51,282 bases of DNA from Chitinispirillaceae bacterium (GCA_035306725.1 DATGNN010000472.1:1-51282), one strand, 5' to 3'; positions 20,567 to 47,446 are shown, counted from the first letter of the stretch. Numbers and translations are program-made. Notes: generated by a model not told the origin, from the sequence alone.

Positions 20567-20737
20567 GGATTAATTACCAATGAGCCTGCGAGAGCAACAC
20601 TTGGCCACAGAAAGGGTTCTATTACTGTGTTGTCATATCTATAAGGTAATAAGACCAGGCAGTATCACCGCGCCACACATAGTTCATGCCCGTCGATCGA
20701 AACCACCTTTACTCGTCCCCATTCAGTTATTACAGGC
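20567..20737 (+). repeat. copy A of a diverged GC-enriched intergenic element family (possible structured RNA)
   Basis: Four blocks are shared colinearly with copy B:
- CAGAAAGGGTT (20608-20618)
- GTATCACC (20662-20669)
- GTTCATGCCCGTCGATCGAAA
- TCGTCCCCATTCAG (20713-20726)

In addition, 20581-20595 is the exact reverse complement of 47409-47423. Confidence 0.6.
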
Positions 20738-20794
20738 ACAGATATTGCATTCTACATCAGAAAGTTTTACAAATTTTTCAAAAAAGGAGACAAA

Positions 20795-21082
20795 ATGGCT
20801 CTTGAAATACCAAATATTATTGATTGTAATGCTAAAAATTGTGTTTATAATAAGCAAAATCAATGCCATGCATTTGCCATAACAGTCGGGGATGAAGAGC
20901 CGCGATGTGATACTTATTGCAGTTCTCAGGTAAAAGGTGGTATCAGTGAGGTTACAGGCAAAGTAGGTGCCTGTAAAGTATGTGATTGTATTCACAACAA
21001 ATCTTTTGAATGCACCGCCCAAGGAATCCACATTACCATTAATCATGGCACGCCTGATTGTGCAACTTTTGAACCCCTCTGA
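20795..21082 (+). CDS. DUF1540 domain protein (two Cys-rich DUF1540 repeats)
   Basis: AAGGAG RBS. The protein has two repeats of the pattern C-x4-C-x-(Y/H)N-x5-C-x-A-x-I, each ending in C(D/A)T(Y/F). Confidence 0.8.
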   Translation: MALEIPNIIDCNAKNCVYNKQNQCHAFAITVGDEEPRCDTYCSSQVKGGISEVTGKVGACKVCDCIHNKSFECTAQGIHITINHGTPDCATFEPL

Positions 21083-21087
21083 TTTAA

Positions 21088-21107
21088 CCGGTCGGTTATC
21101 CGGCCGG
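21088..21107 (+). terminator. GC-rich hairpin after the DUF1540 gene
   Basis: CCGGTCGG pairs with CCGGCCGG (8 bp including one G-U) across loop TTAT. No U-tract follows, so this is tentative. Confidence 0.4.
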
Positions 21108-21199
21108 CACACAATTATGTACAAACCCTGGTAAAAAACTATTTTAAAAAACCAATATTTTTATTTATCATACGTATTTTTCAGTATTTCGGGTACATA

Positions 21200-21970
21200 A
21201 TGCAACAATTTTCTGCAAAGATATTCTCAAATTCAAAAATCAGCGACTGTTTCTATGAGATGGTGTTTTCCTGGAAACCCAACACAATACCTTTACCCGG
21301 ACAGTTTGTAACAATCAGAGCAGAATCCAGCACATCACCTTTACTTCGCCGTCCTTTTGCTCTGTCGGGATTTTATGAATCAAAAAATAGATGTTCTATT
21401 ATTTATCAGAAACGCGGCCCGGCAACAGCCCTGCTTGCAGGAAAATCTCCTGATGAACAAATTGACCTTATCGGCCCCCTGGGAAATCCTTTCCCAATTC
21501 CGGGTAAAAAGAATAAAGCAATCCTTATCGCAGGTGGAACTGGTATCGGCCCTGTTGTTTTTCTGTGCTCCAGATTAAAAAAAATTGATATCGAGTATAT
21601 CTCCATTTTTGGTGCAAAAACAAAGTCGTCAATTCCTGATAACCAGTTTATCAAACAAAATTTTGTAATCTGTACTGATGATGGAAGTGCTGGTTATAAG
21701 GGGACAACCACCGATTACCTGAAATCTATTTCAAATGTCATAACTTCTGATACAATCCTTTTTGCCTGTGGACCACAACCGATGCTTAAAAGTTGTAATG
21801 ATTTTGCATACTCATATAAAATACCCTGCTACGTCTCTGTTGAACAAATAATGGCTTGCGGAGTTGGTGCATGTATGGGGTGCGCAATAAAAATTACAAA
21901 AGAACCAGGTTTCGCAAGAGCATGTAAAGAAGGCCCTGTTTTTAAATCTACAGAAATTGATTGGAACTAA
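21200..21970 (+). CDS. pyrK: dihydroorotate dehydrogenase B electron-transfer subunit
   Basis: FAD/NAD-binding ferredoxin-reductase fold with RPFAL, and the C-terminal 2Fe-2S motif CGVGACMGC. It lies directly upstream of pyrD. Confidence 0.9.
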   Translation: MQQFSAKIFSNSKISDCFYEMVFSWKPNTIPLPGQFVTIRAESSTSPLLRRPFALSGFYESKNRCSIIYQKRGPATALLAGKSPDEQIDLIGPLGNPFPIPGKKNKAILIAGGTGIGPVVFLCSRLKKIDIEYISIFGAKTKSSIPDNQFIKQNFVICTDDGSAGYKGTTTDYLKSISNVITSDTILFACGPQPMLKSCNDFAYSYKIPCYVSVEQIMACGVGACMGCAIKITKEPGFARACKEGPVFKSTEIDWN

Positions 21971-22009
21971 ATTAATTGATCTAAGAATTTATCTCCGGGA
22001 TTATATTTT

Positions 22010-22915
22010 ATGAACTTGACCGTCAATATTGGAAACGGGATTTTTCACAATCCTGTATGCGTTGCTTCAGGAACATTTGGTTATGGAAGTGAATATGAAA
22101 ACCTCATAGATTTAAATAAACTGGGTGCAATTTTTACTAAAGCAGTTACTTTAGAACCCCGAACTGGAAATGAAATTCCAAGGATCATCGAAACCCCATC
22201 AGGTATTTTGAATTCCATAGGCTTGGCAAATGTTGGAGTAAAACGATTTGTTCAGGAAAAAATCTCCTTTCTTGAAAAACTCCCTTGTGCAACAGTTGTC
22301 AATGTTGCCGGTTCAACCGAAAATGAATACGTTGAAGTAATCAAAAACCTCGAAAGCTGCAAATCGATCTGGGGATATGAAATTAATGTTTCTTGCCCAA
22401 ATGTTAAGCATGGCGGACTTGCATTCGGCACCGACCCCTTTCAAATCGAACGCTTGACAAAACTACTCCGTCAGACCACATCAAAACCATTAATAATCAA
22501 ATTGACTCCAAATGTAACTGATATCACAACTATTGCAAAAGCGGCTCAAGATGGCGGGGCTGATGCTGTTTCATGCATAAACACCCTGATTGGTATGGTA
22601 ATAGACACACAAAAAAAAGCTACTGCTCTTCCAATGAAAACCGGTGGTTTAAGTGGTCCTGCAATTCGTCCGGTCGGGATTGCTTTAACATACAAAGTCA
22701 GCCGGGCAGTAAGTATTCCTGTAATAGGAATAGGCGGAATTATGAATGCAGATGATGCTATTCAATATTTTCTTGCTGGTGCATCAGCAATTCAGGTCGG
22801 CACAGGTAATTTTGTCGACCCATCAATTGCAGTAAATGTTCTTGAAGGAATAATAAAGTATTCTGAAAGAGAGAACATTAAATCAATAAGTGAATTTCAT
22901 TCTTTCATAACATAG
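22010..22915 (+). CDS. pyrD: dihydroorotate dehydrogenase B catalytic subunit
   Basis: NPVCVASGTFGYG, NVSCPNVKHGG, GGLSGPAIRP and IGIGGI are class 1B DHODH signatures. Confidence 0.92.
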   Translation: MNLTVNIGNGIFHNPVCVASGTFGYGSEYENLIDLNKLGAIFTKAVTLEPRTGNEIPRIIETPSGILNSIGLANVGVKRFVQEKISFLEKLPCATVVNVAGSTENEYVEVIKNLESCKSIWGYEINVSCPNVKHGGLAFGTDPFQIERLTKLLRQTTSKPLIIKLTPNVTDITTIAKAAQDGGADAVSCINTLIGMVIDTQKKATALPMKTGGLSGPAIRPVGIALTYKVSRAVSIPVIGIGGIMNADDAIQYFLAGASAIQVGTGNFVDPSIAVNVLEGIIKYSERENIKSISEFHSFIT

Positions 22916-46486: not shown

Positions 46487-46539
46487 CCCTCTCCCTCCAA
46501 TATTTTAATCGTTTTATTAAACCCGAACAACATGTTTCT

Positions 46540-46705
46540 CAGTGGGCATTCGCGCTGGGATGATAGATTTTGAGGAAATCTGACATGCAAAAAGTAGAGT
46601 AAACCTGCTTACAGTACTTGTTCACGATCTGATAATTGCTTTTGCAATAACGCATTCTTACAGCAACATGCATCTCAGCGCAACTGAGAATTGTTACTAT
46701 TCAGG
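46540..46705 (+). repeat. copy D of the intergenic element family
   Basis: Four blocks are colinear with copy B:
- GCATTCGCG
- CTGCTTACAGTACTTGTTCACG
- CAATAACG (46645-46652)
- ATGCATCTCAGCG (46668-46680)

It ends with the tail ACTATTCAGG (46696-46705). Confidence 0.55.
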
Positions 46706-46905
46706 ATTAAATATTATAGTATAATATAACAGGATAGCGGCCATATGGGCAAATCTAAAAATAATTAATCCATTTTTCTAATCGAATAACACAATAAAAA
46801 TTATAGTATCGTCGAAATCTTTAATGGGAGAATGTAAAGTTTTCCGTAGAATAAGCCGAAAATGTATAATAAACGATTCTTCAGAACCTGCACCAGGGGG
46901 TTTTT

Positions 46906-47067
46906 ATGATGCATCAAAGAGCGGAACCATTTGTTACCCTCGATGACCGCCCCGACAGGGATACCATCATAGAAAAAGACGAAATACTCAGTCTCATAAT
47001 AGATATCGAGGTTATGTCTATAGAAAAATTCTATGAAAAATATTTTTCTTCTGATAATAGAAGGTAA
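46906..47067 (+). CDS. possible small protein (53 aa), below the ORF-track cutoff
   Basis: ATG at 46906 preceded by AGGGGG. Translation: MMHQRAEPFVTLDDRPDRDTIIEKDEILSLIIDIEVMSIEKFYEKYFSSDNRR. It is the only SD-preceded ORF I read between copies D and E. No family recognised. Confidence 0.3.
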   Translation: MMHQRAEPFVTLDDRPDRDTIIEKDEILSLIIDIEVMSIEKFYEKYFSSDNRR

Positions 47068-47173
47068 ATTACCCTGATACCTGAAGGGGCAGGATCGGGC
47101 GCAAAGAAAAGTTCATATATTTAGAGTTCTTCGAGCCGGTTTTTTAAGTCGGCCTGAAAAACTTGAAAGTGAA

Positions 47174-47196
47174 AACAGGCTTTGTGCCCGTTTTTT
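47174..47196 (+). terminator. weak terminator-like hairpin with T-run downstream of the small ORF
   Basis: AACAGGC / GCCCGTT (one mismatch) followed by TTTTTT (47191-47196). Confidence 0.3.
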
Positions 47197-47288
47197 AATA
47201 TTTGATACGATCTCTGGTATTTAATAATTAATCTGATGGATGATTTTTATTCTAATATCTTACCCGAAATTCCCTAATTAATATATTT

Positions 47289-47446
47289 AACCTAAACAGT
47301 AAACGTCCCCCTTCTCGAGTCTTTCTCAGACATTGCCGTAAAGGGTTCATGCTTGTCTGACCGTATTTAGACATGATCTTCACAACAAACCAAACCCTTT
47401 CTCACGCCGCTCTCGCAGGCTCATCAACTAATCGTCTCTATTTAGG
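47289..47446 (+). repeat. copy E of the intergenic element family
   Basis: Five blocks are colinear with copy B:
- AACCTAAACAG...
- CATTGCCGTAAAGGGTTCATG
- AAACCCTTTCTCACG
- GCTCTCGCAGGCTCATC
- TCGTCTCTATTTAGG (47432-47446)

An internal helix pairs AAAGGGTT (47340-47347) with AACCCTTT (47393-47400). Confidence 0.65.

Follow-up and report, generated by a model that had tools for sequence, protein, structure and literature searches.

A family of short intergenic repeats resembling miniature inverted-repeat transposable elements in an uncultured Fibrobacterota bacterium

Introduction

The contig DATGNN010000472.1 of a Chitinispirillaceae bacterium assembly (GCA_035306725.1, positions 1-51282) raises a simple question: what are the G+C-rich segments that recur between its genes? 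This stretch of 51,282 nucleotides, hereafter the window, has a G+C content of 36.6% and long intergenic spacers, and a first-pass annotation, made from the sequence alone, had picked out five related segments (A, C1, B, D and E) between positions 20567 and 47446. Three kinds of function were offered for them: a paralogous family of small RNAs (sRNAs) or leader RNAs, which was the reading then preferred, arrays of operator sites for one DNA-binding regulator, or a decayed miniature repeat. The last is the only one of the three to fit the evidence presented here. We conclude that the segments are very probably copies of one non-autonomous, non-coding and mobile family resembling miniature inverted-repeat transposable elements (MITEs) in an uncultured member of the Fibrobacterota.

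The top homologues of the window's proteins lie in metagenome-assembled genomes (MAGs) labelled Chitinispirillaceae, Chitinivibrionales or Fibrobacter, and anaerobic-digester metagenomes contain stretches identical to the window; judged by these matches, the host is an uncultured Fibrobacterota (Chitinispirillaceae-like) bacterium of anaerobic digesters. Syntenic regions of its relatives were retrieved via homologues of a 611-aa and a 975-aa protein, and loci compared with the window are cited below by L numbers where they have to be told apart.

Results

Segments A, C1, B and E resemble one another much more than chance allows, both in local alignments set against dinucleotide shuffles (z of 13 for A-C1, 6.1 for A-B, 5.0 for B-E and 7.4 for A against the reverse complement of E) and in searches with independent profiles, that is, profiles built solely from copies found outside the window, whose E-values are listed with the refined coordinates in Table 1. 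For these four the earlier claim of kinship stands. D is weak and degenerate: its pairwise alignments lie near background, with the exception of B-D (z = 2.3), and none of the profiles, whether built from the four window copies or independent, detected it. It does resemble the 5' consensus (z = 4.8, reached by 0 of 500 shuffles) and one of its ends, TTGTTACTATTCAGG, matches the 3' end of the L043 copy letter for letter, a likeness that makes D a probable degenerate member of the family.

Searches with nhmmer, using single copies as well as the four-copy profile, give a consistent orientation, with A and C1 on the plus strand aligning with B and E on the minus strand. The same-strand blocks noted earlier between A and B can be put down to the imperfect palindromy of the element and to the 5'-type terminus that A bears at each of its ends, the right one, TCGTCCCCATTCAGTTA, being the reverse complement of a 5' terminus with 2 mismatches. 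The family also extends beyond the range first given to it, to a copy F (z = 6.2 against the 5' consensus, 0 of 500 shuffles) and a remnant G (z = 5.2, 0 of 500 shuffles) in which no 3' end is recognisable. The resulting density of 6-7 copies in 51 kb suggests that the repeat family is abundant in the host genome. That the elements are richer in G+C than the spacers around them, as had been judged by eye, is borne out by values of 38-46% within the elements vs 22-37% in their 200-nt flanks.

Table 1. Members of the repeat family in the window and sites associated with them (coordinates counted from the first base of the window)
Feature	Position	Strand	Length (nt)	Independent profile, E-value	Remarks
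G	3612-3655	+		0.019	5'-terminal remnant ACCTGACCGGACGATTAATTTAC
Copy A	20553-20729	+	177	5.4e-4	degenerate; hairpin lost
Copy C1	26333-26509	+	177	5.1e-6 (3' module); 0.37 (5' module)	degenerate; keeps 3' terminus CATTTTAGGTA
B right flank	43641-43643	-			second putative duplication copy, TTA on minus strand; overlaps B's last assigned base
Copy B	43643-43813	-	171	7.5e-13 (5' module); 3.7e-5 (3' module)	best-preserved copy in the window
B left flank	43814-43816	-			putative target-duplication copy, TTG on minus strand (target TTA, or TT)
D	about 46520-46707				probable, very diverged member; orientation and inner boundary uncertain; 5'-consensus similarity
Promoter-like site	46723-46752	-			TTGCCC, 18-nt spacer, TATATT, extended TG (consensus scan); directly upstream of D
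Copy E	47290-47448	-	159	3.1e-8	older; orientation as B
Copy F	48109-48283	+	175	0.23 (weak)	5' end AACATGAATATAGACGACTAATT, 3' end CCGATTTTAGGTA

Family elements share conserved terminal inverted repeats, TACCTGAATGGAGACGA...TCGTCTGATTTAGGTA, with the element starting TACCTGAATGGAGACGATTAATTT and ending AATCGTCTGATTTAGGTA. Such repeats had been reported as missing, yet the two ends of B, TACCTGAATGGAGACGA (5') and TCGTCTGATTTAGGT (3'), are inverted repeats of one another; written out further they are TACCTGAAT(GG)AGACGA and TCGTCT(G)ATTTAGGTA, with equivalents in E and in the outside copies L021, L023, L039 and L043. An ungapped scan of the window for pairs of termini recovers B alone, the other copies scoring no better than shuffles, because the old copies carry indels. 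As a stand-alone motif the core ACCTRAATRG occurs 17 times where 12.6±3.7 are expected, and this want of enrichment argues that the termini are not a general promoter or operator motif.

Since the two halves of the element are imperfect inverted copies, a single strand folds as a long hairpin. On its own strand B reads 5' TACCTGAATGGAGACGAATAATTTCCGATGAGCTGCA...CAGAATGGGTTTTATGGCTG (loop) CAGTCATAAACCCTTTCTG...GCAGATCGCGTAAGGGAATCGTCTGATTTAGGT 3', and the whole copy is predicted to form one rod, with a minimum free energy (MFE) of -66 kcal/mol as RNA (z = -4.6) and of -28.5 kcal/mol as single-stranded DNA (z = -4.0). The hairpins of B and of E, which lies 3' of a 102-aa open reading frame (ORF) and retains its fold, are imperfect and run from end to end; the internal helix noticed earlier in these two copies exists, and is the middle of the whole-element hairpin. 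In both copies the two strands differ, the MFE being -66 kcal/mol on the own strand vs -43 on the other for B, and -47 vs -30 for E. Terminal repeats and a whole-element hairpin are likewise found together in the outside copies L021, L023, L018, L039 and L043, and A and C1 fold no better than shuffles (z = +1.6 and about 0).

Copies range from 159 to 346 nt, with conserved ends and variable centres; the intact element is about 170 nt long, and copies whose centre is filled with repeats are up to about 350 nt. No coding potential is conserved across copies, as indels shift the frame, and short ORFs in the repeat centres stand in different frames in two copies compared by eye. The statement that the regions holding the segments contain no ORF of 60 aa or more is mechanically untrue for A, which is overlapped by ORFs at 20580-20882 (+) and 20723-21124 (-); we nonetheless argue that these are probably non-coding, because the indels between orthologues are not multiples of three.

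Evidence for mobility comes from B, a 173-nt insertion that the relatives L011 and L014 lack at a site that is otherwise collinear. Where the DNA of these relatives aligns near the site, its identity to the window is about 90-98%, and no other large indel interrupts the roughly 60 kb over which the sequences are collinear. At the filled site the sequence is GGTTTAATTG[TACC...TTTAGG]TTAAAGC, against the empty sites GGTTTAGTTAAAGC in L014 and GATTTAATTAAGGC in L011; set beside the empty-site consensus TATAAG(A/G)TTTA(A/G)TTAA(G/A)GCAGGG, the window has TATAAGGTTTAATTG[TACCTG...GATTTAGG]TTAAAGCTG. The 173 nt can be divided into a 171-nt element and 2 bp of duplicated target (TT), or into a 170-nt element and 3 bp (TTA, with TTG as the left copy), and the target TTTAATTAAA is itself a palindrome. 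Given that L014 is the more distant relative, one insertion in the lineage of the window is more parsimonious than two precise deletions, and since B is identical in JGI and ENA assemblies from different projects it is not an assembly artefact. The view that the copies are too diverged for recent mobility thus does not hold for B, a lineage-specific insertion.

We note that sequence identity changes at the same site (43651/43815). To L011 it is 92.7% on the side of the 611-aa gene (43815-51279) and 98.1% on the other (34444-43651), and to L014 it is 89.6% and 93.4%, respectively; this step may mark a recombination breakpoint, or gene content may simply differ.

The stretch that separates the conserved promoter-like site from the 611-aa gene start, where D lies, is 170 nt longer in the window and in its close relatives than in L015, a relative at 68% identity. 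This length is consistent with an older insertion of a unit of B's size, the junctions being too diverged for a clean definition. A second filled/empty pair was sought via the GH43 gene beside the L042 copy; the sole contig of a close relative (L047) carries a 96%-identical orthologue of that gene, and ends 8 nt past it, about 150 nt short of the position of the element. Among the flanks of other copies, those of L021 are TAT on both sides.

Further copies outside the window, which the first-pass annotation had suggested looking for, do exist. A survey of 185,579 species genomes for the 20-nt terminus TACCTRAATRGAGACGAWTA found it six times, on six contigs, in a single genome, the MAG "Fibrobacter sp. 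AS06rmzACSIP_609" (JAAYEB01), and the remaining six matches are singletons in unrelated phyla, about the number that we estimate for chance. The six exact-terminus loci of JAAYEB01 do not overlap the window, and the genome additionally holds weaker copies. A 24-nt version of the terminus matched 13 JGI metagenome contigs, mostly second-lineage orthologues of the JAAYEB01 loci together with one new locus, so that overall about eight further loci are known in one related MAG and in digester metagenomes. Absence from the metagenome pattern scan is not proof of absence, since the JGI contig L045 (Ga0209075_1002902) has the exact terminus of B and was nevertheless missed by a pattern that B satisfies.

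The outside copies measure 207-346 nt and carry the end modules of the window copies. All 12 copies examined (12/12) are intergenic and show no preference of orientation relative to genes: 5 are co-oriented with both neighbours, 4 are antisense to both and 3 lie between genes on opposite strands. The neighbouring genes in the window are functionally unrelated (from a Pfam scan of 18 window ORFs), among them those for a TPR protein, DUF1540/pyrK/pyrD, a TreS-like amylase, whose 1108-aa gene has B upstream of it, and the 611-aa protein, which has an FGE-sulfatase domain.

Several outside copies carry tandem units in their centre, which B and E do not, and in many of them the layout is one of GGTGAAT-type units, an A-run, and then CGTTAT/CGTTGT/CGTTTTC-type units. 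The number of units differs between the orthologous copies at L032 2158-2367 (210 nt) and L037 8835-9165 (338 nt), and repeat centres occur also at L042 5322-5627 and L033 3569-3798; on this comparison of sequences the centre is a variable-number tandem repeat within the element. Sub-families differ in the sequence of the inner arm (GATGAGCTGCA.. vs GATGAGCCTGCGAGAGC..), each retaining a matching partner arm.

Some smaller features of the outside copies deserve mention. The two repeat blocks of the centre pair with one another on the top strand through G-U pairs. An optional 24-nt module, AGCTTGTCCCGCAGTGCGGGAAT, which forms a small G+C-rich hairpin, stands just after the 5' terminus in L021/L042, L022/L035/L040 and L037, and is missing from some copies including all those of the window. 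At L038 3480-3520 two 5'-type termini abut head to head with one base between them (...CACTATTCAGGTA T TACCTAAATGGAGACG...), for which either solitary ends or insertions aimed at ends already in place could account; the second terminus is a variant, TACCTGAATAGCACTGA, that stands immediately before genes in L035 (2676) too and, in a D-like form, in the window.

How have the older copies fared? A is 64-67% identical to its orthologues, with 22-24-nt indels, vs 86-94% in its flanks, and C1 is 87% identical (L028) vs 91-94%. E, at 67-74% to L011 and L014 with many substitutions, a 7-nt indel and a 20-nt deletion, is flanked by DNA of 61-79% identity in a spacer (47200-47668) that is fast-evolving throughout. 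With A, C1 and E less conserved than their surroundings, or only equally so, we conclude that old copies drift and decay and are not maintained as functional RNAs; purifying selection is not seen on these three. D stands at 90-95% in close relatives, next to 95-96% upstream and 73-100% in the 33 nt downstream. It sits between the sigma-70-like promoter-like site, whose sequence is kept as far as L015, and the ribosome-binding site of the 611-aa gene, and would be in the 5' untranslated region (UTR) of that gene if 46723-46752 is a real promoter.

The scan against Rfam that had been proposed matched no relevant family: with Rfam 15 there is no gathering-score match in the window and none at E<=10 on B, and on the outside copies (E<=10; E<=1 in a scan of four loci) there are just chance-level matches on L042 and other loci. 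RNAalifold finds essentially no consensus structure among four window copies (5 pairs at -0.2 kcal/mol), and among nine arm-only sequences just an 8-bp terminal helix with one compensatory change, no inner helix being shared. A consensus scan showed neither copy B nor copy E to have a promoter-like site, whether inside it or a short way upstream, or a terminator-like site. A hammerhead-like reading of GATGAGC...GAAA was set aside, as the copies differ in the CUGA core and no Rfam ribozyme model matched.

As regards a parental element, we looked through about 430 kb, made up of the window and related loci, where no pair of termini 0.7-3 kb apart encloses a transposase gene. Two candidate parents were rejected. 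The ORFs beside the long L020/L043 copy are MgtE-like, Hsp20-like and NmrA-like (the last label being our own reading of the translation), none of them a transposase, and the facing termini that lie 2.9 kb apart in L035 hold ordinary genes, for instance a D-tyrosyl-tRNA deacylase-like ORF, and no transposase. A viral contig collection gave no match, and no RAYT (Y1 transposase) gene was seen among the 18 window ORFs scanned against Pfam, a scan limited to those ORFs.

Discussion

The elements of this family are small and non-coding, have terminal inverted repeats, occur in multiple dispersed copies and are present or absent at an orthologous site, as expected of MITEs. The repeats, their many copies, an insertion at one site and the decay of old copies are what we observed; around them we infer the following cycle. 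A transposase encoded elsewhere in the genome would act in trans, recognising and binding the terminal repeats, and would move or copy the element into AT-rich intergenic DNA with duplication of a 2-3 bp target; the inserted copies would then escape selection and decay. On this scheme B would be young and intact, E older and still able to form its hairpin, and A, C1, F, G and probably D eroded relics. On duplication length alone we take enzymes of IS5-group or IS30-like insertion sequences (IS) to be candidates. Where a spacer is transcribed, a copy within it may give the mRNA a stable hairpin, and D, well conserved and placed after the promoter-like site and before the 611-aa gene, may have been co-opted in this way.

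Several points weigh against this interpretation. The insertion of B is a single filled/empty pair, its duplication is ambiguous between 2 and 3 bp, the longer form needing one substitution, and the flanks of older copies agree only loosely (1-2 of 3 positions). No autonomous element or transposase with matching termini turned up in the roughly 430 kb searched. D is well conserved, unlike the other old copies, and is the sole old copy of which this can be said. Finally, the two strands of each reasonably intact copy fold unequally, the one starting TACCTGAATGG gaining 15-25 kcal/mol over its complement; it is also richer in G-U pairs, with G>C. This asymmetry is not predicted by a model in which a transposase binds purely double-stranded ends, and hints that a single-stranded form, RNA or DNA, matters; as the copies share a master sequence, the strand bias counts as one observation and not as eight.

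The asymmetry is the chief reason to consider an element that depends on its hairpin and moves as a single strand, whether in the manner of REPIN/RAYT, of the palindromic elements derived from IS200/IS605, or through RNA, such that a strand-specific hairpin with G-T or G-U pairs is recognised in place of double-stranded repeats. The sub-families that differ in their inner arms and each keep the matching partner arm would fit such a mechanism, as would the fact that no classical transposase partner has been seen. Yet the left flanks (TTG, TAT, AAA, TAA and TTA) have in common no target of four or five nucleotides such as IS200/IS605 requires, the junction of B has a short duplication where IS200/IS605 makes none, the termini are without the GTAG motif of REP sequences, and RNAalifold shows no common helix beyond the termini; with the bias traceable to a common master sequence, we regard movement as a single strand as unlikely. 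One may go further and speculate about a strand-specific hairpin replicator, with a G-rich top strand (single-stranded DNA or RNA) that is recognised and copied, a hypervariable microsatellite core, and D domesticated as the 5' leader of the FGE-sulfatase-domain gene. We give this a small chance; if true, it would represent a REPIN-like system in Fibrobacterota driven by an as yet unnamed enzyme.

The sRNA or 5' leader family preferred earlier, in which each copy would be transcribed and act via a conserved fold, can draw on the significant folding of B and E, on the same strand asymmetry and its G-U pairs, on a conserved D in a likely 5' UTR, and on G+C enrichment in an AT-rich genome. It would have to accommodate a shared structure limited to the 8-bp terminal helix, the want of any Rfam match even at E<=10, the lost folds of A and C1, orthologues of A, C1 and E that are less conserved than their flanks and differ by indels of 7-24 nt, and an orientation so mixed that roughly half of the copies are antisense to both neighbouring genes, besides the missing promoter-like and terminator-like sites at B and E and the absence of B from close relatives; taken together these make an RNA family very improbable. 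Operator arrays, with the shared blocks conserved by the binding of one regulator, would suit A, B and D, which lie upstream of genes and contain palindromic sequence. They suit neither the position of C1, E and a number of the outside copies, which follow genes or stand where two genes converge, nor the decay of the shared blocks, which is faster in orthologues than that of the neighbouring promoter DNA; the functionally unrelated neighbours, and a whole 173-nt unit that is present or absent in a manner unlike operator evolution, leave hardly any room for that proposal.

In its behaviour the element resembles known bacterial MITEs. Correia elements of Neisseria and RUP of Streptococcus pneumoniae are short intergenic MITEs with a strict TA duplication, and RUP pairs with IS630-Spn1. 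Like the present family they are about 100-200 nt long and non-coding, with terminal inverted repeats and a very short target duplication; they are intergenic in both orientations, form long hairpins if transcribed, range from intact to eroded copies and show insertion polymorphism between close strains. There is, however, no sequence similarity, the host here belongs to the Fibrobacterota, the duplication is apparently TT or TTA and not strictly TA, some copies have a microsatellite-like centre, and no partner IS comparable to the IS630-Spn1 of RUP was found in the sequence searched.

BOX elements, also of S. pneumoniae, are modular (boxA-boxB(n)-boxC, with modules of 45-59 nt). They share with the family conserved end modules, a middle of variable short tandem units, the number of which varies here between the orthologues L032 and L037, and predicted stable hairpins. 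The units here are of 6-7 nt (GGTGAAT, CGTTAT), far from the 45-59 nt of BOX modules, copies B and E of the window are without a repeat centre, and the family differs from BOX further in its clear terminal inverted repeats and an observed insertion event.

The ERIC/IRU and REPIN sequences of Proteobacteria are imperfectly palindromic, measure about 100-130 nt and lie in intergenic regions that are transcribed. In REPINs the hairpin is regarded as what replicates, and compensatory changes as what preserves it; this hairpin resembles the strand-biased hairpin described here. In contrast to them, the present family has no GTAG-type REP core, no RAYT gene in view, a short target duplication and far fewer documented copies. 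From the palindromic elements derived from IS200/IS605 (PATE) it differs in that left flanks vary and the junction of B implies 2-3 duplicated bases.

The family appears to be undescribed, although the kind of element is itself ordinary; a limited literature search found no description of MITEs in Fibrobacter or Fibrobacterota. For annotation, the finding means that G+C-rich, hairpin-forming intergenic islands in such genomes should be treated as members of a repeat family and not as candidate sRNAs or riboswitches. The repeats probably break metagenome assemblies of this lineage, and the end of contig L047 is consistent with this. Insertion polymorphisms of the B type and the variable repeat centres provide strain markers for digester populations of Fibrobacterota, the family as a whole offers a handle on the putative transposase, and the inserted hairpins represent a natural test of effects on expression, for instance on the TreS-like amylase operon and the 611-aa gene.

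Two other observations in the window are recorded here. At 32065-32129 (-), 3' of a 150-aa ORF, lies a terminator-like 65-nt hairpin between AACTGAATAG and CTGTTTAGGTTA, which resemble the family termini; it was considered as a member and rejected, the similarity not being significant. Between D and E, a 53-aa ORF (46907-47068, +) with about 130 nt 3' of it (within 46720-47199) is nearly identical to L011 and L014, with long runs of 100%, among neighbouring spacers that are 60-80% identical. This ORF, which has no Pfam match on record, is also called in the 68%-identity relative L015, and the 130 nt beyond it include terminator-like hairpins.

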